Of a stretch of 64,000 bases of DNA, positions 1 through 43,399 are shown piece after piece. Position numbers and translations under genes: made by a program. Where the stretch lies: NCBI GenBank assembly GCA_934446675.1, contig CAKSEL010000010.1, positions 19,861 to 83,860 of the forward strand, written 5' to 3'. The notes beneath the pieces are model-generated. The model had not been told where the DNA came from and ran no database searches. It was given only the letters and a program-made list of their open reading frames with translations. Position 1 is the first letter of the stretch, and each line of letters opens with the position of its first letter. The DNA comes from an uncultured Eubacteriales bacterium (GTDB taxonomy: Bacteria; Bacillota; Clostridia; Oscillospirales; CAG-382).

Positions 1-660
1 ATTCTCCAACTTTTCGACGGCGAAAAAGTTGCACTCTACTAAAGAGCGTAAACAAAAGCCGTTCGCGGCTCAGACGCCGCCGCGAAAGCGTGGCTACGGG
101 AGGATTTCACTCTAAAGAGTGTAAACGCCTACCGCAACTAACTACCCCTCCGAAATTTCAAAAACTCTCGTTTTGCACTTGTCCACATTGCTGTGTTGCG
201 AAATCGCCGCGCGACAGGCGCGCGGATATGGGGTTCTGTACGAAGTCAAACCATTTTGGAAAAAGTGTTATTTTTTATATTCTCCGACAGTCAACAGGAC
301 TCGCTTTTCTGCTCAGCTCGCTTACGCGAGATGACTTTTACAAATGTTAGTTTTTTGTTTCACGGGCGCGGAGTGAAAAATTCGGTTCTGTTTCGCCGGT
401 GCAAAGTTAAATACCGCATAAATTTCGGTTTCTGCGAAACAATTTCACTCACCAAAGTTCCCCATAGCACACAGTTTCCATAGTTTACTCACGCACCTGT
501 TTACATCTGAGTCAGCCGCCTGCCTTTTGGTGGCTGACGGTACAAGCTGGCGGCAGAGAGTATCCCGTAGCCTTTTCCTTATTTAAGGGCTTACTTGTTT
601 TTCTTTGCAGCTTTCTTTTTAAAAAGAAAGCGCGTATTCTTTTTCGGCGTAGTTGTATCT
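1..660 (-). repeat. Mosaic intergenic repeat, copy 1 (minus orientation, cut by window edge)
   Basis: The reverse complement aligns module-for-module with 4682-5348. Modules: A palindrome 610-631, hairpin B allele iii 511-538, hairpin C 317-330, hairpin D 207-225, hairpin E 62-86, F-variant hairpin 8-30. Its 5' end lies just after the stop (679-681) of the minus-strand M23 gene. Confidence 0.9.
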
Positions 661-678
661 ATGTTTCACGTGAAACAT

Positions 679-2943
679 TTACCAGTTTTCGGGGAGATAA
701 TCATAAGGATTTTGGACAGAGCCGTTAACAATGATTTCAAAGTGGACATGGACGCCGGTAGCCATACCGGTTTTTCCCATAGCGGCGATAACTTCGCCCT
801 GTGCGACCTTTTGACCGACTTCGACATAGAGTTCGGAGTTGTGTGCGTAACGGGTTTTTGTGCCGTCGTCGTGCCTTATTACAATACACTCGCCGTAGCC
901 CGACTTGTCATGCCCGGAGAATATTACTTCGCCGCCGTCGGCTGCCACGATGTCGTCGCCGAGATTACCGCAGATGTCAATTCCCTTGTGGAACTCGTTG
1001 CTCGAGCCGTTAAGTCTCCAGCCGTATCCGCTTGAAACCTTGTCGCCGGAATGCGGCCAGATGTAATACCCCTTGGACGCAACGCGCTTTTCCTCCTCGC
1101 TCATCGGACGCGTGCCGACATTGATAACCTCGGTAATCGGCTCGGAAATAACCCTTTCGGAAATCAGCGTACGTTTGACCTCGTTGCCGCCGACATATCC
1201 TACGCTGTAAGTAAGCTCCTTGCTGCCGTTCACACCTTTGGTTATCACCTTGGTTCTGCCTTCGACAAGATCGGGATCTTCTATGCTCTGCTTTTCGTAT
1301 TCAATAGGCGCGGTCTCTGTTTCGGTCTGCTCTATTACAACGTCAAGTACAGCCGAATTCCGGGCACTTGTATTCGAGTAAAGCGACACCGAGTTGTCAA
1401 GATCCGTCATGTACGCCGGGACGTTGTTCTGATCTTCAGACGGCATACTGAACACTACCGCACCGCCGTTTTCAGCAGGATTTCCGTCCTGTTCGGATAG
1501 CTCATGTCGGTATTGCTCGCCGTCCTCGCTCACAAACGTGTCATACCTCTGCTCGCTGAAATACGCAAGATCCGAGTTTGACGCCGCCGCCAGTCCAAAC
1601 ATTCCGCGAAGTTCCGCAAGCGTGAACATCATTGCCTTGGGATACGTGCCGGCATTTACGGTAATATTATTATAATATGCAACATTGTCCGCATCTATCC
1701 CGCTTTTTTTCAAAACCGCGCGTTTATTTTCAAGGCTGTCCGCAACCGCCGAATCTATCCACGACTTGTACGGCACGGCACCCGTAAGAGCACCGTCAAT
1801 GTAAAGTCCGTAGCCTTCGACCATATCTTCAAGCGCACACTTTTCAAATACGCCGTTCAAATCCTTCTGACTCAGGACCTCTCCCGATTCTCCGGCGACT
1901 GTCGGCACATACTTCAGCGTCGTGTCAAGCCTGTACGACCGCCCGAGGTTGAGCGACATACTCTCATTGAATACATTTTCCGCCGTTTCCACCTGTGCTA
2001 TACTCGAAACAAGTCCTGCATAATCGCCGTCGACATATAGTTCAAACATCGGCGAGAGTTTCATCGCGTCGCCCACCGACAGTGCGCACATTACAAGGCA
2101 CGCCGCCGACGCACCGTACAGCACGGTATATCCGACTGCTTTGCCGATAGATTTTACCGCCACATGGCTGTATTCAAAATTCCTCCAAAGAGACTTTTTA
2201 ATTCTCGTCTCGGCTCGCGTCACCTTGTGCAGTATAAAGTGTCCCGCTCTCTGAAACGCCGGTACGAGATCCAGCGCCGCAACCGCAACAGACCACTTGT
2301 TGTGCCGCCAAAGCGCACTCGCGTTTTTGTACCACATTCCCGGGTGAGCATATATGTTTTTGAACTTGCCTTTTACCGGCGCTCCCGACGAGTAATATTT
2401 GTCATTGCAATACAGATACGCCGCATTGTACCAGCTTTCCAACGCCGACAGCTTGTTCTCGCGAAATCTCTTATACAGTTCTCCGAATGTCGGCGCAGCG
2501 CTGTTATCCACCGTCTTTTCTTCGACGTTTCCGTCCGCCGAACCGTCATTTCCGAGATCGTATACCCTGTATTCGTAATTATCAAGCTTTGCTTTTTTGC
2601 TTATTCTCTCTGCGTCGCGTTTTCTGCGTTCAAGATGTTCCTTTTCGCGCATTGCACGGCGTTCGGCAGCCTTTTCGGCGTCATCTTTTATTCTGTGCGT
2701 ATGTTTTACGGATCTATCCGCCTTATTATTGACGCCGTTCCCTGTTTTTCCAGACGTTCCGGATTTTTCCGCATATCCGCCGGCACCGTTTTCGCTGACA
2801 TTCGCGATTGTTTCACGTGAAACATTGCTTTTGCCGTGTTCGGCACCATAAAGAACATTTGTTCTGCACTCGGAATTCCGTTCCGTATCCGTTTTGCTTA
2901 TATTGGTTTCCGGATTTCTCAAATAATCTTCTCCTTTCCGCAC
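679..2943 (-). CDS. M23-family metallopeptidase with G5-like domain and one TM helix
   Basis: 754-aa ORF. C-terminal M23 signature (FHKGIDI ... GVHVHFEI), G5-like segment (TKVITKGVNGSKELTYSVGYVGGNEVKR) and a hydrophobic helix (AVGYTVLYGASAACLVMCALSV). The start is uncertain: the N-terminus is long, basic and low-complexity, and a 16-bp palindrome lies inside the 5' codons. Confidence 0.85.
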   Translation of the reverse strand: MRKGEDYLRNPETNISKTDTERNSECRTNVLYGAEHGKSNVSRETIANVSENGAGGYAEKSGTSGKTGNGVNNKADRSVKHTHRIKDDAEKAAERRAMREKEHLERRKRDAERISKKAKLDNYEYRVYDLGNDGSADGNVEEKTVDNSAAPTFGELYKRFRENKLSALESWYNAAYLYCNDKYYSSGAPVKGKFKNIYAHPGMWYKNASALWRHNKWSVAVAALDLVPAFQRAGHFILHKVTRAETRIKKSLWRNFEYSHVAVKSIGKAVGYTVLYGASAACLVMCALSVGDAMKLSPMFELYVDGDYAGLVSSIAQVETAENVFNESMSLNLGRSYRLDTTLKYVPTVAGESGEVLSQKDLNGVFEKCALEDMVEGYGLYIDGALTGAVPYKSWIDSAVADSLENKRAVLKKSGIDADNVAYYNNITVNAGTYPKAMMFTLAELRGMFGLAAASNSDLAYFSEQRYDTFVSEDGEQYRHELSEQDGNPAENGGAVVFSMPSEDQNNVPAYMTDLDNSVSLYSNTSARNSAVLDVVIEQTETETAPIEYEKQSIEDPDLVEGRTKVITKGVNGSKELTYSVGYVGGNEVKRTLISERVISEPITEVINVGTRPMSEEEKRVASKGYYIWPHSGDKVSSGYGWRLNGSSNEFHKGIDICGNLGDDIVAADGGEVIFSGHDKSGYGECIVIRHDDGTKTRYAHNSELYVEVGQKVAQGEVIAAMGKTGMATGVHVHFEIIVNGSVQNPYDYLPENW

Positions 2944-3137
2944 CGCGGCAAATAAAATGCGCGGAGCATAAGAATACTATTATACAATTATATATTATAC
3001 ACGCTTTTTTCAAATAAATCAAGTGGCAGAATATGTACGCGGCGTGTGCTGCGTGTGACAGGGACGGACAAAGTTTGAATAAAGTTCCGGGATAATTTTA
3101 AAAGTCGTGCCCGGCACGCGTATTTTCGCGGTTATAC

Positions 3138-3166
3138 TTGACTTTGGCGCAATAATTGTGTATAAT
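3138..3166 (+). promoter_or_regulatory. Sigma-A-type promoter candidate for guaB
   Basis: TTGACT (3138-3143), a 17-nt spacer ending in TGTG, then TATAAT (3161-3166), about 40 nt upstream of the guaB ATG. Confidence 0.6.
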
Positions 3167-3187
3167 AAAATGTAAAAATATACATGA

Positions 3188-4681
<1,494 letters not shown>

Positions 4682-4699
4682 GGGTACGCAAGAATACGC

Positions 4700-4721
4700 G
4701 CTTTCTTTTTAAAAAGAAAGC
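4700..4721 (+). other. Module A: 22-bp perfect palindrome GCTTTCTTTTTAAAAAGAAAGC
   Basis: Identical palindrome at 610-631, 17386-17407, 20539-20560, 22735-22756, 27601-27622, 31915-31936, 43055-43076, 46036-46057 and 52732-52753. It is always followed by TGCAAAGAAAAC. Confidence 0.95.
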
Positions 4722-4789
4722 TGCAAAGAAAACGGTAGCCCTTAATTTAGAAAAAGGCTATGGGATACTCCCTGCCGCCAGCTTGTTCC

Positions 4790-4818
4790 GTCCGCAGTCA
4801 AACAGCAGGACTGCGGAC
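4790..4818 (+). other. Module B hairpin (allele i): GTCCGCAGTC-N9-GACTGCGGAC
   Basis: Perfect 10-bp inverted repeat. The same position in other copies carries allele ii or iii (see findings). Confidence 0.9.
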
Positions 4819-4934
4819 TAAGATTATAAATAATGTGCCGAAGTAAACTATGGAAATTCAGTACAAAGGGTTGCTTTGGAAAGTGAAATTACTTTGCACC
4901 ACCCAAACAACAAACTAACATTTGTAAAAGTCAT

Positions 4935-4948
4935 CTCGCGTAAGCGAG
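4935..4948 (+). other. Module C hairpin: CTCGC-GTAA-GCGAG (GNRA-type loop)
   Basis: 5-bp stem with a GTAA loop, flanked by conserved AAAGTCAT and CTGGGCAGAAAA. Confidence 0.85.
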
Positions 4949-5040
4949 CTGGGCAGAAAAGTGAGTCCTGTTGACTGCGTGATTATATAGAAAATAACAC
5001 TTGCGCCGAATTGGGTTTAACTTCGTACAGAACCCCATAT

Positions 5041-5059
5041 CCGCGCGCCTGTCGCGCGG
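5041..5059 (+). other. Module D hairpin (allele a): CCGCGCG-CCTGT-CGCGCGG
   Basis: 7-bp all-GC stem between conserved CCCCAT and CGATTT. Confidence 0.85.
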
Positions 5060-5179
5060 CGATTTCGCGGCACAGTTTCAGGGACATTGCGAAACGAGGA
5101 TTTTTGAGCTTTCGGGGGCGTATTTGGTTTCGGTGCGCGTTTACACTCTTTAGAGTGAAATCCTCCACGTAGCCGCGCT

Positions 5180-5204
5180 TTCGCTGCGGCGTTTGAGCGG
5201 CGAA
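5180..5204 (+). other. Module E hairpin: TTCGCTGC-GGCGTTTGA-GCGGCGAA, followed by a T-rich tract
   Basis: 8-bp stem with one U.G pair. It is followed by AAAATCTTTTGTTT, which makes it the most terminator-like hairpin inside the element. Confidence 0.8.
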
Positions 5205-5231
5205 AATCTTTTGTTTACACTCTTTAGAGCG

Positions 5232-5256
5232 CGACTTTTTCGATTCCGAAAAGTCG
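5232..5256 (+). other. Module F hairpin: CGACTTTTTCG-ATTC-CGAAAAGTCG (start of a Z unit)
   Basis: The core CTTTTCGATTCCGAAAAG recurs about 19 times in the window (by eye), always followed by GAATAGAGTTGCACATGGAAGTGAAT..CCGTTTCCGCCC or a variant. Confidence 0.9.
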
Positions 5257-5348
5257 GTGTATAGACTTGCACATAGCAGTGAATTATCTCTTTCCGCCCA
5301 AAACAGGCAACAATCACTCCCCCAATGTAGAAGAAAGGAGCAGAACAC

Positions 5349-6719
5349 ATGAAAAAATACCTCAAAAAAATACTCCCCGTACTGTGCTCTGCACTTGTTC
5401 TCTGCGTAAATTTCACGTCCTACGCGTCCTATAATGACGAACGCTTTGAGATATACGTCAATATGAATAATAAGGTCACAAATTCGTATGTCGTGCCTAA
5501 TCTCTACCGCCAGGACGCAGCATATACCTATGTAAAAAGCTTTCCTCTCGTAGTAAGCGGCGGCGTGGAATATGTCCCTATAACCGAGTTCTCGCTCTTT
5601 TACTATATAACCGTAACGTATAGTAAAATCAATGATAATTTCTATATGACAAATACTAAAACCGGTTCGTATCTGTCTTTCGACGTTGAAAATAATATAG
5701 CCGAGTCAAATGACGGCGTTATAACCTCCATGAAAACCAAGCTGTATTATAAAACAAGATATATCCCGGCACGCGACGTTGCGGATATTCTCGGACTTGA
5801 GTGCGAAAGCTATGACGATAACTCGTCGGGTATATACGCTTTCCGCGTAAAGGATTCAAGCGCCGAGCTTTCGTTTGACGCTTTGCTTGAAAAGTATATC
5901 CCGCCTAAAAAACGCGAACTTCCCGATATACCTCTGCCCGAAATCAAATATCCCGACGACGGTAAAAATAATCCCGACGGTAATGATAATAAGGGTAACG
6001 GTTCCGATAATCCGGACGGCTCGAATACAGACTCCGGAAAGCAAGATCCCGATAACGGTAAGAATAATCCGCAGCCCGAACCGGAAGACCCGTATAAGGA
6101 TATAGCCCCGAGACAGATGTTTTTCGTTTATACCGATTTTAACGCCGATTGCGCTTCCGATATAGTAAAACGGTTCTCTTCTTATTCGGAAAACTGTACC
6201 TTTGCCATGACGGAACAGGATATAAAGGATAACCCGGATTTTGTAAGACTTGCCGTGGTGAACCAAAACGGTATCGCACTTGCGGCAGATGATGTGAATA
6301 CCGACGGTACGATAACGGATTCAAAACAGCTCGCAAATGAGCTTGCGGATAAATACGATAAAGCAAATGACGCGCTGTACGCCGCACTTAAACAAAAAAT
6401 AAGACTGTGCGTTGTTCCGGACGGGGTTCTGGCAGCGGCGGATAACGCAGATACACTGTATAATGAGCTTAAAGCGCGCGGATATGCCGCGGTAAAGTTC
6501 AACTGTACCTCTCCCGAAAATTATAACAGAGCCTATAACGTGCTTTCCTCGGTAAGACGTGTAATAACGTCGTATTTTCCTAAGAATACCGCGCAGAAAC
6601 CGGTTCTGAAACTCAGCATGAGCGATAACAGCGCATATTATACCGGACTTGTTCTCGGATTTATGAATGATTACGAGCAGTTTACGACCGGCATACCCGA
6701 TGAAACAATGTTCGGCTGA
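5349..6719 (+). CDS. Secreted hypothetical protein with D/N/G/P-rich linker
   Basis: 456-aa ORF with an N-terminal signal-like segment (MKKYLKKILPVLCSALVLCVNFTSYA) and a low-complexity stretch (PDDGKNNPDGNDNKGNGSDNPDGSNTDSGKQDPDNGKNNPQPEPEDP). SD AAGGAG lies 8 nt upstream. Confidence 0.7.
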   Translation: MKKYLKKILPVLCSALVLCVNFTSYASYNDERFEIYVNMNNKVTNSYVVPNLYRQDAAYTYVKSFPLVVSGGVEYVPITEFSLFYYITVTYSKINDNFYMTNTKTGSYLSFDVENNIAESNDGVITSMKTKLYYKTRYIPARDVADILGLECESYDDNSSGIYAFRVKDSSAELSFDALLEKYIPPKKRELPDIPLPEIKYPDDGKNNPDGNDNKGNGSDNPDGSNTDSGKQDPDNGKNNPQPEPEDPYKDIAPRQMFFVYTDFNADCASDIVKRFSSYSENCTFAMTEQDIKDNPDFVRLAVVNQNGIALAADDVNTDGTITDSKQLANELADKYDKANDALYAALKQKIRLCVVPDGVLAAADNADTLYNELKARGYAAVKFNCTSPENYNRAYNVLSSVRRVITSYFPKNTAQKPVLKLSMSDNSAYYTGLVLGFMNDYEQFTTGIPDETMFG

Positions 6720-12433: not shown

Positions 12434-12439
12434 TATACA

Positions 12440-12995
12440 TAAAAGTAGAATTTGATCCAAGTTTCTTGCCGATAGGCAAGCTGGGCAGAAAAACGTGTCC
12501 TGTTGACTGCGTAATAACTCGAAAAAATTACTTTTTTCACCTAAAATTAAGTTTACGCAGACCGCAGCGTGACATGGCGTAAGAGATAGAGCTGAGATAA
12601 ACAAATTTTACTTAGAAACCAACCCCATCGAGCAGTGCGGAGCATCTGCGAGCGAAAATTTAAAACTTCGGAGGTGCGGGAAAGTTTTACCGACGATAGT
12701 TTGATGTGTGGAAAGGAAGCCGCGCTTTCGCTGCGGCGTTTGAGCGGCGAAAATCTTTTGCGACTTTTTCGATTCCGAAAAGTCGGAAGAATAGAGTTGC
12801 ACATGGAAGTGAATTATTCTTTTTCGCCCAAAACAAGCGTCAGTTAGATAAACACAAAGTATCTTTTCTACTTTTCGATTCCGAAAAGTCGGAGAATAGA
12901 GCTGCACATGGCAGTGAATTAAAATTTCTCGCCCAAAATAAGCAACAGCCAGCCAAGCACAAAACATCTTTCCGCCCAACCTCCCTGCTCTCTTT
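12440..12995 (+). repeat. Mosaic repeat copy 3b: 5'-truncated copy (from module C onward)
   Basis: Hairpin C variant CTTGCCGATAGGCAAG at 12465-12480, then CTGGGCAGAAAA..CCTGTTGACTG, module V, D allele b, S3 spacer, E hairpin and two Z units. Confidence 0.9.
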
Positions 12996-15818: not shown

Positions 15819-15855
15819 ATGAATTGTGGGTTATTTTGGATTGAGTTATGCTTGG

Positions 15856-15990
15856 TTTGGGTGAAAAAAGATAATTCACTGCCACTTGCAAGTCTATTCT
15901 CCAACTTTTCGATTCCGAAAAGCGGAGATACAAAGCTGCACTTTGAAGAATATTTCCCATTTCCGCCCAAACAAGCAACAATCAACCAAA
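15856..15990. repeat. Mosaic repeat copy 4: two Z units head-to-head around one F hairpin
   Basis: TTTGGGTGAAAAAAGATAATTCACTGCCACTTGCAAGTCTATTCTCCAA, then CTTTTCGATTCCGAAAAG (15905-15922), then CGGAGATACAAAGCTGCACTTTGAAGAATATTTCCCATTTCCGCCCAAA. The left arm is a reversed Z and the right arm a forward Z. Confidence 0.85.
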
Positions 15991-15996
15991 ATTACC

Positions 15997-16156
15997 TTTT
16001 CCACAAATTAACATCGACTTTCCCACAAAATCCACAAAGAGTTATACACATCAAATCCACAGGAAATCAACAGGTTACGCATAAGGTTTTCCATAGGAAA
16101 AAAATTCTGGAATCAAGGCAGAATAAGCACTTCGGGAGTTGTCCACAGTTTCCACA
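15997..16156 (+). promoter_or_regulatory. Cluster of seven DnaA-box-like 9-mers, all in one orientation
   Basis: TTTTCCACA 15997, TTTCCCACA 16019, AAATCCACA 16028, TTATACACA 16042, AAATCCACA 16053, TTGTCCACA 16139, GTTTCCACA 16148. Each has 1-2 mismatches to TTATCCACA. Confidence 0.7.
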
Positions 16157-16245: not shown

Positions 16246-17358
16246 ATGATTTTTACCGTAGATAAGGACGAGTTCGAGAAAGCCATAATACCGGTAAGTA
16301 TAGTGGCGCAGAATAAGTCGTCGGAGGCAAGCCTTTCCGGCGTTTATATGGAGGCAAAAGATAATAAACTCGTGCTGTATTGCTATGATATAGAGCGCGG
16401 TATAAGAACCGAGATAGACGCCGACGTAAAAAAAGAAGGCTGTATAATAGCCGATTATCAGATAGTGCCTATTATACATTCGCTTAACGGCGGAGAAGTC
16501 TATATCGAAGTAGATGATAATTATATAATTAATATAAAGAATGATGAATCCGAACTTCAGATAATGGGCAGAGACGGCTCGTCGTATCCGAAAATTCCCG
16601 AAGTCAGAGGATTTTCAAGCTTTACAATAAGCCGCAGACAGCTTAAAAATGTTATATCAAAGACTATGTTCGCAGTGTCTGATGATGAGTCTAAGCCTAT
16701 ACTTAAAGGCTCGCTGTTTGAAATTTCAGACGGTAAACTCACAGTCAGCGCAATAGACGGATTCAGATTTACCGTAAGAACCGAAAAAAGTACCGTTGAT
16801 AAGTCCGATCTTAATGTAAGCTTTATTCTGCCCGGTAAGGCTGAACAGAACCTGCTCAGAATTATTGATGACAGCGATGATAATATAAGCTGTGAACTTG
16901 CAAATAAACATATAATTTTTGTTATGGATAACCTTTATATCCTTATCCGTTTGCTTGAGGGTGATTTTCCGTCTTATCAGAAGTTTATTCCGCAGTATGA
17001 TGTTAAGGCTGTCGTTGATAAACAGGAACTTATTGCAAGCCTTGAAAGAGTTAATATTATTAACGCTAAAAAGAAAACCTCCGCTAAACTTACTTTCGTT
17101 AATGATCAGCTTAAAATTTTCTGTAAAACCGATCTCGGTCAGGTTTCCGATGTTATCTCTATCTATATGGAGGGCGATCCTATCGAGGCTAATTTTAATC
17201 AGTCTTACCTCCTTGACGCTCTCCGCGCCTGCGATGATGAAAAAGTCGTCCTTAGAGTAGCCGGTCAGGGCAGAGGTCTCGTTATCGTTGCCCGTGAAGA
17301 AGATGAAAAAGATGATTCCTCTTATCTCCAGCTCGTTATGCCTGTCAGAGCAAGATAG
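16246..17358 (+). CDS. dnaN: DNA polymerase III beta sliding clamp
   Basis: 370 aa, three-domain clamp length, with the motif LLEGDFPSYQKFIP. Lies downstream of the DnaA boxes. Confidence 0.93.
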   Translation: MIFTVDKDEFEKAIIPVSIVAQNKSSEASLSGVYMEAKDNKLVLYCYDIERGIRTEIDADVKKEGCIIADYQIVPIIHSLNGGEVYIEVDDNYIINIKNDESELQIMGRDGSSYPKIPEVRGFSSFTISRRQLKNVISKTMFAVSDDESKPILKGSLFEISDGKLTVSAIDGFRFTVRTEKSTVDKSDLNVSFILPGKAEQNLLRIIDDSDDNISCELANKHIIFVMDNLYILIRLLEGDFPSYQKFIPQYDVKAVVDKQELIASLERVNIINAKKKTSAKLTFVNDQLKIFCKTDLGQVSDVISIYMEGDPIEANFNQSYLLDALRACDDEKVVLRVAGQGRGLVIVAREEDEKDDSSYLQLVMPVRAR

Positions 17359-18268
17359 AAACATTTTCGCCGAAGAAGAATACGCGCTTTCTTTTTAAAA
17401 AGAAAGCTGCAAAGAAAACGGGGAACGCGCTTTTCTGAAGAAAAGCTGAGCGCTCTAAAGAGTGTAAACAAAAGACTTTCGTAGCCCTTAAATAAAAATA
17501 AAGCTGTTGGCAACTCTGTGCCGCCAGCTTGTACCGTTCGCAGTCGAACAGCAGGACTGCGAACTCAAATCTAAGCAGGTGCCGAAGTAAACTATGGAAG
17601 TTGTGTACTATTGGTAACTTTGAAAAGTGAAACCCCTTTGCAACAGCGAAATAAAGTAAAAATTTCACTTCGCACCCGCGAAACAAAAACTAACATTTGT
17701 AAAAGTCATCTTGCCGTAGGCAAGCTGGGCAGAAAAATTTGTCCTGTTGACTGTTTGAATATATTAAGAGTAACATTCTTGCCAAAATAGTTTAACTTCG
17801 TACAGAACCCCATATCCGCGCGTCAGTCGCGCGGCGATTTTGCCGTAAGTTACACGGACGTACCGTAGTAGCAAGGCGGTCACGCTTGTGAGAATAATAG
17901 AGGTGAGAAAAGCTGTGTTTCGGGCAAAATCCTTCCGTCGGGGGATTGTCAAGGGGCGAGTAGTCCCTTGAACGGCTTTTCGACCACTTTTCGCCGCCGA
18001 AAAGTGCATATTTAAAGTTGCACTTTGAAGAATATAACCCGTTTCAGCTCAAAATAATCTGAAGTCAGCCACACGCAAGTGTAGTTCGCTTTCGCGGCGG
18101 CGTTTGAGCCGCGAAAATCTTTTGTCATTTATCCTCGCAGGGGACTTTTTCGATTCCGAAAAGTGAGAGAATAGAGTTGCAATTAGAAGTGAGTTATCCT
18201 TTTTAACCCAAAATAAGTAACACTCAGCCAAACAAAAAGTATTAAAAAATTTTGAAAAAAGAATATAG
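17359..18268 (+). repeat. Mosaic intergenic repeat, copy 5 (910 bp)
   Basis: A palindrome 17386-17407, a 60-bp insertion at 17421-17480, hairpin B allele ii 17536-17564, hairpin C allele ii 17710-17724, D allele a variant, S2-like spacer and two Z units. Confidence 0.93.
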
Positions 18269-20506
18269 GTGAAAAACTTGCCGAAAAAAAAGCAAATCGT
18301 AAAAGAATCCCTGCCGGAGGCAGTAATCTCCGATCAGAAAATAACCGATACATTGAAAAATAATTATATGCCGTATGCAATGAGCGTAATTATCTCAAGA
18401 GCAATACCGGAGATAGACGGATTTAAGCCGGCACATAGAAAACTTCTCTATACAATGTATAAAATGGGACTTCTTACCGGAAACAGAACAAAGTCGTCAA
18501 ACGTAGTCGGACAGACAATGAAACTTAATCCGCACGGAGATGCCGCAATATATGAAACTCTCGTAAGACTTACACGCGGAAATGACGCACTTCTCTGCCC
18601 TTTTGTCGATTCAAAGGGATCTTTCGGTAAGGTTTATTCGGATATGGCTTTCGCTGCGGCAAGATATACCGAGGTAAAACTCGATGAATTCTGCGAAACC
18701 GTGTTCCGCGGTATAGATAAAGACGCCGTTGAAATGGTAGATAACTATGACGGTACAATGAAAGAACCGACATTGCTGCCTACGGCTTTTCCAAATATAC
18801 TTGTTTCGGCAAATATGGGTATCGCAGTCGGTATGGCGTCAAAATTCTGTTCTTTTAACCTTGGCGAGGTCTGTGACGCTGTAATAGAGTATATTAAAGA
18901 CGAAAATGTTGATCTGACCGAAATTATAAAGGCTCCCGATTTTTCTACCGGCGCATATCTTATCTATGATAAACAGCAGATAAAAAATATCTATGAAACC
19001 GGTACGGGTTCGTTTAAATTAAGATCAAAGTATAGCTATAATAAAAAAGATAACTGTATAGAAATAACCGAAATACCTTACGGCGCGAAAGTCGAGGCTA
19101 TAATAGATAAAATTTCGGCAATGGCAAAGGAAGGTAAAGTCAAGGAAATTTCCGATGTCAGAGATGAAACGGGACTTGACGGACTGCGGCTCACAATAGA
19201 CTTGAAACGCGGAGCAGATCCCGAAAAGCTTATGAAAAAGCTCATGAAAAATACCCAGCTTGAGGATAGTTTTTCATGTAATTTCAATGTGCTTATAGCC
19301 GGAACTCCCAGAACTCTCGGTATAAGAAGTATAATTGAAGAATGGACAGCATGGAGAAGCGAGTGCATAAAACGGGAGCTTTATTTTGATCTTGAAAAGA
19401 TGAAAGCAAAACTGCACCTGCTCTACGGTCTGAAAGAACTGCTTGTCGATATAGATAAGGCAATTAAGATAATACGCGAAACCGAAAAGGAAAAGGACGT
19501 TGTTCCCAACCTTATGAAAGGCTTTTCGATTGATGAAATTCAGGCGGATTATATCGCGGAAATTAAATTGAGATACCTGAACCGCGAATATATACTCAAC
19601 AGGCTGTCCGAAACCGAGGAGCTTGAGAAAAAGATAGACGAAACCGAGAATATTCTTAAAAGCGAGAAAAAAGTCCGCGGCGTAATATCAAAACAGCTTG
19701 CCGATATTAAAAAGAAGTACGCAAAACCCAGAAGAACAGAGATTGTTTACGATAAACCCGAAGAATATACAGAAGAGCCGGAAATTCTCGATTATCCCGT
19801 AATAGCCGTTGTCACCAAAGACGGATATTTTAAGAAGATTTTGCCGCCGAAGAGCGCAAACGCTAAGGTTGAAGAGCATAAGCTTAAAGAAAATGATGAG
19901 ATCGTGTTTAATGAAACCGTTACAAATGACTGCGATCTGATTGCGTTTACCGATAAGTGCCAGGCATATAAGGCAAAACTTGATGATTTCGATGAAATTA
20001 AACCGTCCGCACTCGGAGATTATATCCCGGCAAAGCTGAAATTTGATGACGGTGAAAATGTAATGTTTATCTGCGTTACTAAGGATTATTCCGGATCGGT
20101 TGCGTTCTTCTATGAAAACGGTAAGGCGCTGACCGTTCCGCTTAAAGCTTATGAAACAAAAACCAACCGTAAAAAGCTTGCCAATGCGTATAGTGCGGAC
20201 AGTAAGCCCGTAGGTATATTCTTTGTTCCGCAAAATACCGGACGCAGCTCGAGCGTTGATTTTCTGCTTAAAACAAGCGGCTCTAAGGCTATGATCGTTA
20301 ATTCTTCCCTGCTTACCGAAAAGGTTACGCGCTCCTCTTCCGGCGTTATCGTGTTTACTCTTAAAAAGGGTCAGATACTTACCGATGTATCACTTTTCAC
20401 CGATGATGGCTCAGAAGAAATGAAAGAATTTTCCCGCTATCGCAAAACCAAAGTACCCAGCACCGGTACTACCATTACCTCCGGCAAACAACTTTCCCTT
20501 ATATAA
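18269..20506 (+). CDS. Type IIA topoisomerase subunit A (GyrA/ParC family)
   Basis: Active-site region FAAARYTEVKL and KLNPHGDAAIYETLVRL. At 745 aa it is shorter than typical GyrA, and no B subunit is adjacent. The start may be TTG 18278, preceded by AGGTGA. Confidence 0.9.
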   Translation: MKNLPKKKQIVKESLPEAVISDQKITDTLKNNYMPYAMSVIISRAIPEIDGFKPAHRKLLYTMYKMGLLTGNRTKSSNVVGQTMKLNPHGDAAIYETLVRLTRGNDALLCPFVDSKGSFGKVYSDMAFAAARYTEVKLDEFCETVFRGIDKDAVEMVDNYDGTMKEPTLLPTAFPNILVSANMGIAVGMASKFCSFNLGEVCDAVIEYIKDENVDLTEIIKAPDFSTGAYLIYDKQQIKNIYETGTGSFKLRSKYSYNKKDNCIEITEIPYGAKVEAIIDKISAMAKEGKVKEISDVRDETGLDGLRLTIDLKRGADPEKLMKKLMKNTQLEDSFSCNFNVLIAGTPRTLGIRSIIEEWTAWRSECIKRELYFDLEKMKAKLHLLYGLKELLVDIDKAIKIIRETEKEKDVVPNLMKGFSIDEIQADYIAEIKLRYLNREYILNRLSETEELEKKIDETENILKSEKKVRGVISKQLADIKKKYAKPRRTEIVYDKPEEYTEEPEILDYPVIAVVTKDGYFKKILPPKSANAKVEEHKLKENDEIVFNETVTNDCDLIAFTDKCQAYKAKLDDFDEIKPSALGDYIPAKLKFDDGENVMFICVTKDYSGSVAFFYENGKALTVPLKAYETKTNRKKLANAYSADSKPVGIFFVPQNTGRSSSVDFLLKTSGSKAMIVNSSLLTEKVTRSSSGVIVFTLKKGQILTDVSLFTDDGSEEMKEFSRYRKTKVPSTGTTITSGKQLSLI

Positions 20507-21285
20507 GGACGCGAAGGGGAACGCGCTGAAGGTTACGCGCTTTCTTTTTAAAAAGAAAGCTGCAAAGAAAACGGTAGCCCCTAATTTAGAAAAGAATTGT
20601 TGGATACTCTCTGCCTCCGGCTTGTACCGTCAGCCACCAAAAGTCAGGCGGCTGACTTAAATGTGAACAATGGTGCCGAAGCAAGCTATGGAAATTCAGT
20701 ACAAATGGTTGCTTTGAAAAGTGAAATAATTACGCACCGACGAAACACAAAACTAATACTTGTAAAAGTCATCTTGCCGTAGGCAAGATGGGCAGAAAAA
20801 TGAGTCCTGTTGACTGTTGGAGAATATAAAAAATAACACTTTTTCCGAAATGGTTTGAGTTTGTACAAACCCCATTATCGAGCAGTGCGGAGCATCTGCG
20901 AGCGATTTTGCCGTAGGTTGTGTGGACGCACCGTAGTAACAAGTGGTCACTTTGGTAAAAGCGGTTGAGGGGTAGAAATCCGAGTTCAAGGCAAAATCCC
21001 CCACGTAGCCACGCTTTCGCGGCGGCGTTTGAGCCGCGAAAATCTTTTGTAACTTTTTCGATTCCGAAAAGTTAGAGAATAGAGTTGCACATGGCAGTGA
21101 ATAACCCGTTTCCGCTCAAACAGGCAAAAATCAGCCAAACAAAAAACATCTTTCAGCTTTTCTACTTAGAAAAGCGTCAGTATAAAGTCGCACTTTGAAA
21201 AAAGTAACCCGTTTCCGCCCAAAAAAAAGTAAGTAAAATTTAAATATTTACCCAAAATTTAAGAAGAAGAAAAGGAGAATTTTCC
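20507..21285 (+). repeat. Mosaic intergenic repeat, copy 6 (779 bp)
   Basis: A palindrome 20539-20560, hairpin B allele iii 20629-20656, C allele ii, D allele b, S2, E hairpin 21016-21040, F hairpins at 21051-21073 and 21156-21175. Confidence 0.93.
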
Positions 21286-22695: not shown

Positions 22696-23565
22696 AGAAT
22701 ACGAAGGGGTACGAAGGGGTACGCAAGAATACGCGCTTTCTTTTTAAAAAGAAAGCTGCAAAGAAAACGGTAGCCCTTAAATAAGAAAAAAGCTGTGGGA
22801 TATTCTCTGCCGCCAGCTTGTTCCGTCCGCAGTCGAACAGCAGGACTGCGGACTAAGATGTAAACAGGTGCATGAGTAAACTATGGAAACTGTGTGCTAA
22901 GGGTAGCTTTGGAAAGTGAAATTGCTCCGCACTATCTAAACATAAAACTAAAATTCAGCAAAGTCATCTCGCGTAAGCGAGCTGGGCAGAAAAATAAGTC
23001 CTGTTGACTGTGTAATAACAGTAAAAATTAACATTTGCGCACCCAAAATAAAGTTTACGCAGACCGCGGCGTGACATGACGTAAAACTTGGCATTATGTC
23101 AACCAATCCATGTTCAGATACCAACCCCATCGAGCAGTGCGGAGCATCTGCGAGCGAAGATTGCAAACTTCGGAGGCGCGGAAAAAGCTTTACCGACGAT
23201 AGTTAGATGTGTGGAGAAGAAGCCGCGCTTTCGCTGCGGCGTTTGAGCGGCGAAAATCTTTTGTCATTTATCCTCGCAGGGGACTTTTTCGATTCCGAAA
23301 AGTGAGAGAATAGAGTTGCAGGTGGAAGTGGATAATCCGTTTTCGCCAAAAATAAGTGAAAATCAGCCACACGCAAGTGTAGTTCGCTTTCGCTGCGGCG
23401 TTTGAGCGGCGAAAATCTTTTGTTTACACTCTTTAGAGCGCCCGTCTTTTCGATTCCGAAAAGCGGAGATATAGGGTTGCACATGGAAGTGAATAATCAA
23501 TGTGGCACAAAAATATTCATTCCTCCTAAACTAATCAAAAATCACCCCAAAAAGGAATAAAAAAT
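22696..23565 (+). repeat. Mosaic intergenic repeat, copy 7 (870 bp)
   Basis: Four tandem TACG decamers (22697-22736), A palindrome 22735-22756, hairpin B allele i 22825-22853, C, V, D allele b, S3 and two E+F+Z units. Confidence 0.93.
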
Positions 23566-27569: not shown

Positions 27570-28282
27570 TTTTTGTCCCGAAGGGGTACGAGGAATACGC
27601 GCTTTCTTTTTAAAAAGAAAGCTGCAAAGAAAACGGTAGCCCTTAAATAAGAATAGAATTGTGGGATACTCCCTGCCGCCAGCTTGTTCCGTCCGCAGTC
27701 AAACAGCAGGACTGCGGACTCAGATATAAATAAGGTGCCGAAGTAAACTATGGAAATTGTGTACGGACGATAACTTTGAAAAGTGAAATTGCTCCGCACC
27801 AACAAAACAAAAAACTAACATCTGTAAAAGTCATCTCGCGCAAGCGAGCTGGGCAGAAAAACGAGTCCTGTTGACTGTGAAATAGCTCAAAAAAATTACT
27901 TTTTTGCACCCAAAATAAAGTTTACGCAGACCGCAGCGTGACATGGCATAAAAATCCGGAATTATGTCAACTAAACCGTGTTTAGATACCAACCCCATCG
28001 AGCAGTGCGGAGCATCTGCGAGCGATGATAGAGAATTTCGGAGGTGCGCGGAGGCTTTACCGACAATAGTTTGATGTGTGGAAACATAGCCACGCTTTCG
28101 CGGCGGCGTTTGAGCCGCGAAAATCTTTTGTTTACACTCTTTAGAGCGCGACTTTTTCGATTCCGAAAAGTCGGAGAATAAAGCTGCAAGTGGCAGTGAA
28201 TAATCCGTTTCCTCCTAAACTTAAGAAACAATCAGCCCAAATAATCAGTACCCTGAAAAAAGTAGAGAAAGGAAGATACCCG
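27570..28282 (+). repeat. Mosaic intergenic repeat, copy 8 (713 bp)
   Basis: A palindrome 27601-27622, hairpin B allele i 27691-27719, hairpin C with GCAA loop 27835-27848, V, D allele b, S3 and one E+F+Z unit. It ends GAAAGGAAGATACCCG just before TTG 28283. Confidence 0.93.
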
Positions 28283-31895: not shown

Positions 31896-32730
31896 GGAGT
31901 ACGCAGGAGAACGCGCTTTCTTTTTAAAAAGAAAGCTGCAAAGAAAACAATAGCCCCTAATTTAGAAAAGAATTGTGGGATACTCTCTGCCGCCAGCTTG
32001 TACCGTCCGCAGTCAAACAGCAGGACTGCGGACTAAGATGTAAACAGGTGCGTGAGTAAACTATGGAAATTGTGTACTAATGGCAGCTTTGGAAAGTGAA
32101 ATAATTACGCACAAACGAAATAAATCCCAAATTTCACTTTGCACCCACGAAACAAAAAACTAAAATTCAGCAAAGTCATCTCGCGTAAGCGAGCTGGGCA
32201 GAAAAACGAGCCCTGTTGACTGCAAAATAACTTGAGAAAATTACTTTTTTGCACTCGAAATAAAGTTTACGCAGACCGTAACGTGACATGGCATAAAAGT
32301 TTGGCATTATGTCAACTAAACCGTGTTTAGATACCAACCCCATCGAGCAGTGCGGAGCATCTGCGAGCGATTTCGCCGTAGGTTACGTGGACGCACCGTA
32401 GTAACAAGTGGTCGTTTTGGTAAGGGTTTTGGAGGGGAAGAATGTGCGTTTAGGGCGAAATCCTCCACGTAGCCACGCTTTCGCGGCGGCGTTTGAGCCG
32501 CGAAAATCTTTTGTTACCTTTTCGATTCCGAAAAGTAAGCATATAAAGTCGCACTTTGAAGAAAGTAATCCGTTTCCGCCCAAACCAAGCAAAAATAAGC
32601 CAAACGTAAAACATCTTTTCACTTTTCGATTCCGAAAAGAGGAGATATAAGGTTGCAATTGGAAGTGAATGTCCCGCTTCAGCCCAAAATAATCAAAAAA
32701 AGAAAATAGAAGAAGAAAAGAGGAGTCCCC
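31896..32730 (+). repeat. Mosaic intergenic repeat, copy 9 (835 bp)
   Basis: A palindrome 31915-31936, hairpin B allele i 32005-32033, C, V, D allele b, S2, E and two Z units. It ends AAGAGGAGTCCCC just before GTG 32731. Confidence 0.93.
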
Positions 32731-33756
32731 GTGAAGTTCTCGGTAGTAGGAATCCAGCACCCGCATATATACGGAATGACAAGTGAACTTGTCGCACATG
32801 GCGCAGAACTCGTCTCGGCGTATGATAGCGATAAGATAGCACTTGACGCGTTCGTAAAAAAGTACCCGGGCGTAAAGCCGGTAAGATGCGAAGAAGAAAT
32901 ACTTGAAGATAAAAATGTTCAGCTCGTGGCAGGCGCCGCCGTTACGTCCGAAAGAGCCGATATAGGTATACGCACAATGAACGCAGGTAAAGATTATTTT
33001 ACCGATAAAGGTCCGTTTACGTCGTTTGAACAGCTTGAAAGAGTAAAGCAGACAGTAAAGCAGACCGGAAAAAAGTATATGGTTTGTTATAGCGAAAGAC
33101 TTCAGAATTCAAGCGCTGAAATGGCAGGAATGATGATAAAGCGCGGAGATATAGGAAAAGTCGTTCAGGTCGTAAGTATGGGACCGCACAGACTTAACGC
33201 AAAGTCAAGACCGGAGTGGTTCTGGCAAAAAGAAAAGTTCGGCGGTATACTCGATGATATATGCTCGCATCAGTTTGAACAGTTTTTGTATTTCACAGGC
33301 GCAGATAAGGCAAGCGTGGTTTCGGCAAGAGTCGAAAACTTCGCACACCCCGAGTACCCCGAATTTGAAGATTTCGGTGAAGCAAGCCTTGTCGCCGATA
33401 ACGGGGCGTCGGGATACGTAAAGGTCGATTGGTTCACACCCGACGGACTTGATACGTGGGGCGACGGCAGAGCTTTTGTAATAGGCACGGACGGATATAT
33501 CGAACTCAGAAAAACCATAGATATATGCGGAAGACCGGGTGCAAATCACCTGTTTGTGACTACAAATAAGCAAAAAACAACGTATGTTGACGCAAATTCT
33601 TTCGGACACCCGTTCTTTGACGCGTTTATAAAGGACTGCCAAGAACGTACCGAAAACGCAATGACTCAGGAACACGTCTGGGAGAGCGCAAGACTTACGC
33701 TTGAAGCTCAGCAAAAAGCCGATGAATTCAGAAAAAAACTAAAAAATATGCTTTAA
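32731..33756 (+). CDS. Gfo/Idh/MocA-family oxidoreductase
   Basis: 341 aa. Family-level resemblance by eye (N-terminal Rossmann-like half, C-terminal alpha/beta domain). GTG start. Confidence 0.8.
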   Translation: MKFSVVGIQHPHIYGMTSELVAHGAELVSAYDSDKIALDAFVKKYPGVKPVRCEEEILEDKNVQLVAGAAVTSERADIGIRTMNAGKDYFTDKGPFTSFEQLERVKQTVKQTGKKYMVCYSERLQNSSAEMAGMMIKRGDIGKVVQVVSMGPHRLNAKSRPEWFWQKEKFGGILDDICSHQFEQFLYFTGADKASVVSARVENFAHPEYPEFEDFGEASLVADNGASGYVKVDWFTPDGLDTWGDGRAFVIGTDGYIELRKTIDICGRPGANHLFVTTNKQKTTYVDANSFGHPFFDAFIKDCQERTENAMTQEHVWESARLTLEAQQKADEFRKKLKNML

Positions 33757-37241: not shown

Positions 37242-37640
37242 AGGGAGTTCCTCTTTTCTTCTTCTTTTCTTTGATTTATGTTGGGCTTGTTTTCTTTTGT
37301 TTTGGGCGGAAATTGGTTAGTCACTGCCATGTGCAAGCGTATACCTCCGCTTTTCGGAATCGAAAAGACGGGCAAAAGATTTTCGCGGCTCAAACGCCGC
37401 CGCGAAAGCGTGGCTTTATTTTCCACACAAAATTGTATCGTCGGAAAAACATCTTCGCGCCCCCGAAGTCTGCAATCTTCGCTCGCAGACGCTCCGCGCT
37501 GCTCGATATGGGGTTCTGTACAAAGCTAAACTATTTCGGGGAAAGTGTTATTTTTTATATACTCATGCAGTCAACAGGACACACTTTTACGACCAGCTCG
37601 CTGTCGCGAGATGACTACGGCTGAATTTTACTTTTGTGTT
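37242..37640 (-). repeat. Mosaic repeat copy 10a: 5'-truncated copy in minus orientation, 3' end at the polA start
   Basis: On the reverse strand: hairpin C (GACA loop) 37597-37610, D allele b, S3, E hairpin, F hairpin 37350-37367, Z core, then SD and the polA GTG. Confidence 0.9.
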
Positions 37641-37680
37641 TGGTAAACTAAACTTGCAAGTTCGCTCTAAAACGTAATAT

Positions 37681-38156
37681 ACCGCACCAAATTGCACTCA
37701 CAAAGACGTGACACGGCAGAAAAACAGTATTATGTCAACCAAGTCATTGCTAAGAAACCAACCCCATCGAGCAGTGCGAAGCATCTGCGAGCGATTTTGC
37801 CGTAGGTTATGTGGACGCACCGTAGTAACAAGTGGTCACTTTGGAAAAAGCGTTTGAGGGGTAAAAAGTCATGTTTAGGGCAAAATCCTCCACGTAGCCA
37901 CGCTTTCGCGGCGGCGTTTGAGCCGCGAACGGCTTTTGTTTACGCTCTTTAGAGTGCAACTTTTTCGCCGTCGAAAAGTTGGAGAATAGAGCTGCACATG
38001 GAAGTGGATTATCTTTTTAGCCCCAAATAAGCAACACTCAGCCAACCGCAGAACATCTTTCAGCTTTTCGATTCCGAAAAGCGTCGGTATAAAGTTGCAC
38101 TTTGAAGAAAATTCCCCGTTTCCGCCCAAATCGACCTCAAAATATCTTCAATCTTC
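37681..38156 (+). repeat. Mosaic repeat copy 10b: 5'-truncated copy in plus orientation
   Basis: Starts in module V, then D allele b, S2, E, F-variant hairpin 37957-37981, Z, and a second F+Z. It ends at the stop codon (38157-38159) of the minus-strand HD gene. Confidence 0.9.
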
Positions 38157-43022: not shown

Positions 43023-43399
43023 GGGTACGAAGGAGTACGCGCCGAAGAATACGCGCTTTCTTTTTAAAAAGAAAGCTGCAAAGAAAACAATAGCCCTTAA
43101 TTTAGAAAAAGGCTACGGGATACTCTGTGCCGCCAGCTTGTGCCGTCAGCCACCAAAAGTCGGGCGGCTGACTCAAATCTAAGCAGGTGCGTGAGTAAAC
43201 TATGGAAATTATGTGCTGACGGTGACTTTGGAAAGTGAAACTCTTTTGTCATTTATCCTCGCAGAGGACTTTTTCGATTCCGAAAAGTGAGTGTAGAAAG
43301 CTGCAAGCAGAAGTGAATTTCCCGTTTCCGCCAAAAATTAAGATATATTTCTCAAATTTTTAAGATACATTTTTCCCAAAAAAGAAAGGAAGAGTCCCG
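43023..43399 (+). repeat. Mosaic intergenic repeat, copy 11 (377 bp, internal deletion)
   Basis: A palindrome 43055-43076, hairpin B allele iii 43145-43172, and the 5' half of P3, joined directly to the linker TCATTTATCCTCGCAGAGG plus one F+Z unit. It ends GAAAGGAAGAGTCCCG just before ATG 43400. Confidence 0.92.

Follow-up and report, generated by a model that had tools for sequence, protein, structure and literature searches.

Repeats scattered between bacterial genes come in several described forms, and the closest known kinds to the one treated here are the BOX-type modular repeats and the REP/BIME mosaics. BOX elements are about 100-300 nucleotides (nt) long and number 125 in a genome of 2.2 Mb (PMC3049150). 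A tagged REP is a palindrome of 20-40 nt with a loop of 4-5 nt and an unpaired GTAG or CGTC tag (PMC3733652), and Firmicutes are not among the phyla listed by the source paper on tagged REPs (one of PMC3184786, PMC3733652 and PMC3116915). Correia and ERIC elements are transcribed with their neighbours and can supply promoters or RNase sites (PMC3049150). Here we describe an intergenic mosaic repeat of 0.3-1.1 kb, made of at least six types of module, in a 64,000-nt stretch of contig CAKSEL010000010.1 from an uncultured Eubacteriales bacterium; "the window" below means the whole of this stretch. A first-pass annotation had proposed that in one copy of the repeat two short strands, CTGCCGCCAG and CTGGGCAG, pair with each other and so close a compact multi-stem RNA domain of about 185 nt, transcribed in the gene-sense direction. 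We find that a conserved closing helix is not supported: the two strands are complementary in the consensus, without covariation. A better description of the domain is a series of local stem-loops independent of one another, hairpin P1 being weak and hairpins B and C both strong.

Copies of the domain were collected in two ways. An exact pattern, AAGTCATCT followed after a gap of 20-40 nt by GTCCTGTTGACTG, has anchors that flank the 3' strand of the proposed helix without constraining it. Scanned over 185,579 species-representative genomes, it matched a single one, the uncultured Clostridiales metagenome-assembled genome (MAG) UMGS1387, at 15 loci; the genes of UMGS1387 are 93-96% identical to those of the window, and our literature search found no paper on this genome. 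The same scan also matched 42 metagenome stretches. Models of the 5' and 3' modules run with nhmmer gave 75 and 90 hits, 66 of which pair into complete domains. With the near-identical copies of locus L001 removed, the alignment, here called A1, holds 53 distinct complete copies of 241-318 nt from the window, from UMGS1387 (a MAG of about 95% identity) and from metagenomes, the range in length coming mainly from zero to two sub-repeats.

The sequences and plus-strand coordinates given for the two strands were right (Table 1), and together they can form CTGCC:GGCAG and CAG:CTG, that is 5+3 base pairs (bp) with a GC bulge of 2 nt, around hairpin B, the GTGC/GCAC stem and hairpin C. The readings of two variant copies were equally accurate: copy 12 has TTGGGCGG as its 3' strand while its 5' strand (46108-46117) keeps the sequence CTGCCGCCAG, and copy 13 has CTGGTCGG at 50721-50728, with one true mismatch (C.U) and one G.U. 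The claim that substitutions yield only G.U wobbles does not hold, since the ten complete window copies contain five G.U cells but also four true mismatches: a G.G (17518), a G.A (20611 copy), a C.U (50545 copy) and a C.A (minus-strand copy, 547-556/309-316). Five of the ten are perfectly complementary between the strands. The duplex energy of 28-nt flanks is at chance level (-15.2 kcal/mol, against -13.7 ± 3.3 for shuffles, 30% of which reach it), and three further long-range complements (10-12 nt, 83-90%) lie inside the same 711-nt element.

Across A1 covariation does not rise above the shuffled level. The eight helix pairs are paired in 87.0% of cells, and in 87.2 ± 0.7% when the 3' letters are permuted among the sequences (303 of 500 shuffles match or exceed the observed value). 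Covariation scores 0.154, with 0.152 for the shuffles, and one pair has double-sided changes where 2.1 are expected. That pair, the sole one to vary on both sides, reads AU in 25 copies, GC, GU and AC in 9 each, and GA in 1 (Fisher p=0.13), so that the mismatch A.C turns up just as often as the compensated G-C. Uncompensated changes occur at three of the eight pairs, leaving the outermost unpaired in 21 of 53 copies, C47:G308 in 14 and A52:U305 in 10, and 13% of cells are unpaired overall. The cells divide into 334 Watson-Crick, 35 G.U, 16 A.C and 39 other mismatches. The G.U surplus traces to one frequent variant, A310G, present in 19 copies, and counted by substitution type the ratio of G.U to A.C is 6 to 4, so the helix bears no mark of the gene-sense strand; in hairpin B the counts are 1 G.U and 20 A.C. 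The strand-specific tolerance of G.U pairs that had been read into copy 12 is thus not a property of the family. Furthermore, the 5' strand is nearly invariant and its supposed partner is among the most variable parts of module MC, which makes a selected helix unlikely.

Folding gives a mixed picture, most of the helix reappearing in a subset of 21 copies (below), and does not restore the claim. RNAalifold, run on all 53 copies, does not recover the closing helix; its consensus contains hairpins B and C and the GGTGC/GCAC stem, with CAGC of the 5' strand joined to an invariant GUUG instead. As an alternative partner for the 5' strand this GUUG, which belongs to the TTGACT motif, is not credible, with only four weak pairs and an invariant partner strand. 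When partition functions are computed copy by copy, the outer 5 bp exceed P=0.5 in 12 of 53 and the inner 3 bp in 21, compared with 48 for hairpin B and 29 for hairpin C, and in the reference copy the helix has P=0.01 once 28 and 17 more flanking nt are included.

The local hairpins supply the standard against which the helix can be judged. Hairpins B and C and the GGTGC stem together are paired in 96.6% of cells (88.1% shuffled) and have 92 double-changed cells where 33.9 are expected, and neither value was reached by any of the shuffles (0/500). Hairpin B has double changes in 14, 22, 1, 23 and 15 sequences at five pairs, and its variants are GTCCGCAGTC/GACTGCGGAC, GTTCGCAGTC/GACTGCGAAC, GTCAGCC(A/G)CC/GGCGGCTGAC and GTCCGACACC/GGCGTCGGAC. 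Hairpin C takes the form CTCGC/GCGAG in 35 copies and CTTGCC/GGCAAG in 17, its third pair being CG in 35, UA in 17 and UG in 1. Because these two hairpins covary in the same alignment, the variation within A1 suffices to reveal a selected stem. The GTGC...GCAC stem is paired in 96% of cells yet is essentially invariant, hence uninformative, and the support for P1 is marginal (67.1% paired against 66.0% shuffled, 9/500; 10 double-changed cells against 5.3).

Other pairings within the domain were considered. The loop and 3' arm of hairpin B (CAGCAGGACU) are complementary to AGUCCUGUUG in every copy checked, a kind of consensus complement that is common in the element, and the pairing was rejected at 87.2% of cells against 87.4% shuffled and with zero covariation. 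In the three window copies searched, the loop and 3' arm CAGCAGGACT is likewise 90% complementary to AGTCCTGTTG of the conserved MC motif; this match is probably an inverted copy of the motif or chance, its 53-copy statistics equalling the shuffled value. At A1 columns 116-123 (window 4845-4852) the variants AGTAAACT and AGCAAGCT are tightly linked, T..A versus C..G, two bases apart, a spacing too short for a normal hairpin that may reflect subfamily linkage or an unusual motif.

The two strands also occur apart. About 17 distinct orphan MC modules have hairpin C, the 3' strand and TTGACTG with no 5' module within 330 nt, and their 3' strands show the same spectrum as the complete copies (CTGGGCAG, CCGGGCAG, CTGGTCGG and GGGCGC); three internal orphan MB modules keep GTGCCGCCRR and hairpin B and then run directly into a head module. 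Within the window ten copies are complete (one lies on the minus strand), while two 3' modules and one 5' module are orphans. Since the orphans keep the same sequences and variants, the conservation of each strand is independent of its partner. The reading that we favour, and hold to be fairly probable together with the mechanism outlined below, is that the helix strands are conserved pieces of two separable modules, MB and MC, and that selection does not maintain their pairing. Of the compact multi-stem domain, then, the several hairpins stand, with compensated changes in B and C, and the long-range closure and the compact fold are not supported.

A map of the window built with hidden Markov models of the modules places them in 14 intergenic regions, from position 1 to 53.8 kb, for a total of about 9.6 kb or 15% of the window. 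A full element spans the distance from a stop codon to the next start and consists of A_pal, MB, a variable middle, MC, D18 and one to three head modules (F_D5). Past the stop codon come two to five short TACGC-type decamers in tandem (GGGGTACGAA, GGAGTACGCA or GAATACGCGC), then the palindrome A_pal, which at the reference copy is the first conserved module past the upstream stop codon (4681), or an alternative module, A2. MB contains the weak hairpin P1, the 5' strand and hairpin B; MC contains hairpin C, the 3' strand and GTCCTGTTGACTG, with D18 often next. The middle module, GGTGC...GCACC, holds a sub-repeat of about 35-65 nt ending in TTTGCACC, present zero, one or two times between GGTGC and the final GCACC (A1 columns 165-240), and because the sub-repeats end in this way the 3' partner of the GGTGC stem is ambiguous in long copies. 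In MC, TTGACT is followed 18-19 nt on by TAACAY, TTACTT or TTGCAT, and one copy (17747-17776) passes a sigma-70 scan at 9/12; the motif is a putative promoter element, inferred only. The general form of F_D5 is a hairpin, CTTTTCGATTCCGAAAAG, then TATAAAG, then TTGCAC...CCGTTTCCGCCCAAA, in one to three tandem copies about 104 or 160 nt apart. It is always directed at the adjacent start codon, on either strand, the last copy ending 19-130 nt before it in all cases but one, and it looks like a shared promoter or leader reused across unrelated housekeeping genes.

The placement of the repeat is strongly polar. The domain starts 42-120 nt past the stop codon of a co-oriented open reading frame (ORF) in 44 of the 45 copies with readable flanks, and the sole exception, at L026:5104, lies within a divergent gap. 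The gene-sense placement of the domain is real, and the sense strand is marked neither by the G.U counts nor by the folding energies: the antisense alignment of 21 length-homogeneous copies folds as well as the sense one (-80.1 vs -80.3 kcal/mol). The window copies cannot separate gene polarity from replication polarity, because the window straddles the switch in GC skew. Loci L026 and L031 each hold two opposite-facing complete copies 3.5-4 kb apart, which argues against replication-strand targeting as the cause, and in L026 the copy on the minus strand lies behind a co-oriented gene of its own (the plus copy being the exception above), so that a gene-linked polarity is favoured.

Orthologous sites differ between strains by whole modules: L061 carries an additional 671 nt, and L060 lacks about 750 nt, so that MB is joined directly to a head module there. 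The breakpoints lie in shared palindromes or repeats; at window 15906-15921 versus L061 one module replaces another at a palindrome common to both, with no insertion flanked by duplicated target. Beyond the lineage, three congeners whose IMPDH is 88-92% identical keep the gene order IMPDH, hypothetical, response-regulator, kinase, and have 30-143 nt where the window has a 667-nt element (4682-5348); the repeat modules gave zero hits in 21 kb of each. In a fourth, more distant relative, whose IMPDH is 80% identical and whose downstream genes differ, the gap measures 38 nt and the modules again gave zero hits. The 667-nt element was inserted in this lineage alone, at what had been an operon junction ancestrally, and since congeners with the same gene order carry no modules, the family is a recent expansion in one lineage.

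What such an insertion does to the junction can be proposed in outline. The element is probably read through in the gene-sense direction, because the genes on either side are co-transcribed in the relatives, where the junctions are so short, and a canonical sense terminator is absent; on the plus strand no intrinsic terminator was found at A_pal, hairpin B or hairpin C, the sole hits being on the minus strand. Hairpins B and C would then function as RNA stem-loops, whether intercistronic or at the 3' terminus of the upstream message, a role like that suggested for REP/BIME and BOX elements (PMC3733652, PMC3049150), while the head modules (TATAAAG, then TTGCAC), perhaps along with TTGACT-N18/19-TAACAY, would keep the downstream gene expressed. 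A dependence of downstream expression on the head modules would account for the fixed polarity without any closing helix.

Several observations weigh against this reading. All copies in A1 come from one species-level lineage (about 95% identity), which limits the power to see covariation, gene conversion blurs the counts of events among them, and a deeper alignment cannot be built because the congeners have no copy. Registers slid against each other pair in just 24-46% of cells, against 87% for the proposed one. RNAalifold on the 21 length-homogeneous copies recovers seven of the eight pairs and a 6-bp extension, but only at the cost of hairpin C, which covariation supports and which has to melt in that fold. 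A duplex that includes the 3' arm of hairpin C reaches -25.7 kcal/mol and beats 99% of shuffles (1.2% reach it), and the helix so extended is marginally better paired than its shuffles (92.9% vs 92.1%, 22/500), with one compensated case, in L008. The counts of promoter-like and terminator-like sites are not above shuffles. Finally, read-through is not universal, because at L010 (3540-3575) a canonical intrinsic terminator, CCCGTACTTTTTGTACGGGTTTTTTTT, precedes one copy.

Among the alternatives, the one that survives best, and that we consider unlikely though worth keeping in view, is a selfish repeat acting at the level of DNA, in which single-stranded or cruciform hairpins are recognised by a transposase or recombinase, as with REP/REPIN or IS200-type ends, and the transcript has no role. 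The presence, absence and exchange of modules between strains agree with it, as do the occurrence of F_D5 and A2 in both orientations, the common palindromic centres, and stems that are equally good on both strands; a variant of hairpin B that gives A.C in the sense strand would give G.T on the other (variant 2, 18 copies). REPs too are mostly downstream of coding regions (PMC3733652), and the family, being missing from sister species, is dispensable. The marks of such an element were looked for and did not appear: three full elements have no terminal inverted repeats, just internal hairpins and scattered 10-20 nt matches, no target-site duplication was seen at window 15906-15921 versus L061, and no transposase is among the window genes examined. 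One polarity with respect to the upstream gene is kept by complete copies even where neighbours oppose each other within 4 kb, for which selection through transcription is a better fit than targeting by replication strand. Hairpin C, moreover, is capped on the sense strand by GNRA-type loops (GTAA, GCAA).

The helix as first drawn, 5+3 bp formed in the gene-sense RNA, closing the domain and stacking on hairpin C, we regard as improbable. The perfect complementarity of half the window copies and the advantage of its register speak for it, as does the position of the 3' strand, which abuts hairpin C so that coaxial stacking is geometrically possible; the minimum-free-energy fold of 4760-4965 includes most of it, and the consensus fold of the 21 short copies has seven of its eight pairs. 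Against it stand the covariation at shuffled level, an A.C mismatch as frequent as G-C at the one informative pair, its absence from the 53-copy fold and its low probability with longer flanks, the flank duplex at chance level, the far stronger conservation of one strand than of its supposed partner, and the unchanged persistence of each strand where the other is missing.

Slightly less probable still is a two-state RNA switch at the operon junction, in which CCAGCUUGU and the 5' arm of hairpin C compete for the shared 3' arm plus CUGG (GCGAGCUGG or GCAAGCUGG), which makes hairpin C and a long-range helix (about 9+4 bp) mutually exclusive. The strength of the extended duplex and its marginal statistics, given above, point this way. 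The probabilities of the extended helix and of hairpin C are anticorrelated, copies with CUUGCC/GGCAAG favouring the long-range helix, and in L008 a change of U to C in the 5' strand and one of A to G in the shared arm keep hairpin C through G.U and restore G-C in the long-range helix. Set against this single compensated case are four copies in which that pair has changed without compensation (C.A in L010 and L026, A.A in L031 and L028); the last pair is A.C in seven copies, hairpin C and its covariation are retained in orphan modules that have no competitor strand, and neither a terminator nor a sequestered ribosome-binding site to be gated was seen downstream of hairpin C. Least credible of all is the broader idea that MB-MC is a new, very-high-copy structured RNA at operon junctions whose alternative states (hairpin C or long-range helix) govern the share of transcription or processing that reaches the downstream gene, which, if true, would mean that one lineage had re-wired many housekeeping operons with a single reusable RNA device.

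One pairing that leaves the domain was noticed in copy 12, where the variant 3' strand TTGGGCGGAAA (46283-46293) is complementary over 11 nt, with no mismatch, to the head-module motif TTTCCGCCCAA lying 471 nt further downstream (46765-46775; also 46660-46671), and both substitutions earlier read as G.U wobbles are precisely those that create the match. As a general partner of the 3' strand the head-module motif UUUCCGCCCAA was rejected, the perfect 11-mer of copy 12 being accompanied on inspection by no matching variation across copies.

Searches against known families returned nothing that would name the element. At the gathering score Rfam matched nothing across the 64 kb window; permissive thresholds gave only chance-level hits (E>=0.5) over 4650-5360, and 52650-53850 likewise yielded none; a tRNA/tmRNA search found no match, and neither did blastn of the full element against a plasmid set and a phage set. 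Coding explanations fare no better. Small sense ORFs were rejected as genes on the ground that single-nucleotide indels in the hairpin B loops and linkers break their frame, and minus-strand ORFs over the repeats (Table 1) on the ground that they have no Pfam hit and meet stop codons in related copies; the latter are almost certainly not genes, and gene callers may annotate them. The surroundings have the look of a replication-origin neighbourhood (window 15997-16147, 16246-17358 and 18269-20506): dnaN, with three beta-clamp Pfam domains, and a gyrA/parC-type gene are present, three DnaA-box-like 9-mers lie just upstream of dnaN, and the gene upstream encodes a DHHW-family protein, not dnaA. 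GC skew goes from negative to positive near 3-5 kb (window 1-6000 and L001 1-10000 examined).

Table 1. Positions of the repeat modules, their copies and related features; coordinates are those of the window unless a locus is named.
Feature	Position	Strand	Description
Proposed 5' strand of helix	4772-4781	+	CTGCCGCCAG; well conserved, belongs to module MB
Proposed 3' strand of helix	4949-4956	+	CTGGGCAG; variable portion of module MC
A_pal	4695-4733	+	perfect 22-nt palindrome GCTTTCTTTTT/AAAAAGAAAGC (4700-4721) plus TGCAAAGAAAAC
Hairpin P1 (weak)	4734-4769	+	GGTAGCCC 4734-4741 with GGGATACT 4762-4769
Hairpin B	4790-4818	+	GTCCGCAGTC / loop AAACAGCAG / GACTGCGGAC; covariation-supported
GTGC...GCAC stem	4835-4899 (arms 4835-4838/4896-4899)	+	encloses variable middle module MG; other copies have 0-2 extra sub-repeats
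Hairpin C	4935-4948	+	CTCGC-GTAA-GCGAG, variant CTTGCC-GTA-GGCAAG; covariation-supported
MC conserved motif	4965-4977	+	GTCCTGTTGACTG; most conserved in MC; -35-like TTGACT 4971-4976
Head module F_D5	5234-5317	+	hairpin GACTTTTTCGATTCCGAAAAGTC, TATAGA, TTGCAC...TTTCCGCCCAAA; ends 32 nt before start codon 5349
F_D5 sites	5234-5317, 12763-12954, 17986-18229, 21052-21229, 32516-32698, 37287-37367(-)
Further F_D5 sites	37959-38143, 46604-46793, 51056-51243, 53387-53737
Complete copy	283-596	-	downstream of minus-strand gene 679-2943; 3' strand CTGAGCAG, C.A mismatch
Complete copy	17478-17758	+	5' strand GTGCCGCCAG, terminal G.G
Complete copy	20571-20821	+	strands CTGCCTCCGG and ATGGGCAG; one G.U, one G.A
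Complete copy	22767-23015	+	both strands consensus
Complete copy	27633-27882	+	both strands consensus
Complete copy, one extra sub-repeat	31947-32227	+	both strands consensus
Complete copy (copy 12)	46068-46316	+	3' strand TTGGGCGG 46283-46290, two G.U
Complete copy (copy 13)	50505-50754	+	3' strand CTGGTCGG, one C.U mismatch, one G.U
Complete copy, two extra sub-repeats	52764-53077	+	3' strand CTGGGTAG, one G.U
Orphan MC	12435-12514	+	hairpin C, CTGGGCAG, TTGACTG; MB module absent upstream
Orphan MC	37564-37642	-	upstream of minus-strand gene 34689-37241; 3' strand CTGGTCGT
Orphan MB	43089-43200	+	GTGCCGCCAG and hairpin B fused straight to F_D5; hairpin C and 3' strand absent
Decamer sites	22696-22735, 4682-4699, 20507-20538, 52703-52730
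Sub-repeat examples	17640-17680, 52925-52995
CAGCAGGACT/AGTCCTGTTG sites	4803-4812/4964-4973, 22838-22847/22997-23006, 46139-46148/46298-46307
Minus-strand ORFs over repeats	4983-5348, 12608-12979, 32383-32799, 53157-53762	-	105-201 amino acids, odd composition
Strain polymorphism	15840-15987 vs L061 3092-3764; 52768-53676 vs L060 5951-6107
Congener junctions	L062 11474-11615, L063 11474-11502, L064 11474-11514

The case carries a caution for the reading of repeats, namely that within a family confined to one lineage, complementarity of the consensus and a few G.U pairs in two copies are not evidence of a helix, and hairpins B and C in the same alignment exemplify what genuine support looks like. 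The repeat itself is of interest as a polar, multi-module element at gene junctions, including some that in the sister species are tight operon boundaries, and it makes up about 15% of the DNA around the origin region with dnaN and gyrA. Perhaps it is a natural example of how intergenic DNA, selfish or domesticated, re-punctuates the transcription units of a gut anaerobe, and it accounts for the poor assembly of such genomes.

Set beside the large structured RNAs OLE, GOLLD, ROOL and HEARO, the element is similar in its several hundred nt and its multiple stems, some of them supported by covariation; those RNAs are single or few-copy genes with a multi-helix architecture conserved across taxa, whereas the element has separable modules, a very high copy number in one species-level lineage and no Rfam match. 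With Correia elements and ERIC it shares abundance and an intergenic position, but these MITE-like repeats, which affect the genes transcribed along with them, are single units of 100-160 nt with terminal inverted repeats and target duplications (PMC3049150), neither of which was found here. The likeness to REP/BIME is closer (PMC3184786, PMC3733652, PMC3116915), since both have GC-rich imperfect palindromes with compensated stems, set in a mosaic with other motifs, mainly downstream of coding regions in co-directional or convergent gaps, and proposed to act as 3' RNA stem-loops. Unlike a tagged REP, hairpin B is 29 nt long with a 9-nt loop, and its CGTC overlaps the stem, where the last C covaries (CGTT in 14 copies, G changing to A in compensation); none of the genes examined, from sequence that covers the window and loci of 21 kb or less, is a RAYT gene, and the composite is several times larger than a REP. 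BOX, as known from Streptococcus pneumoniae (boxA-boxB(n)-boxC) and as BOX-type repeats from S. suis (PMC3049150), has IS-like terminal inverted repeats that the present element lacks, bears no apparent sequence relationship to it, and does not reach the size of 0.3-1.1 kb, the six or more module types, the span from stop to start, the single polarity or the share of about 15% of the window seen here. It nevertheless consists of interspersed intergenic modules in a fixed order, with a varying number of internal modules, lone modules, strain differences in length, a narrow lineage and an extensive predicted secondary structure if co-transcribed (PMC3049150), and it is this BOX-type pattern of fixed outer modules, variable internal count, lone modules and strain length variation that we meet again in the present repeat.

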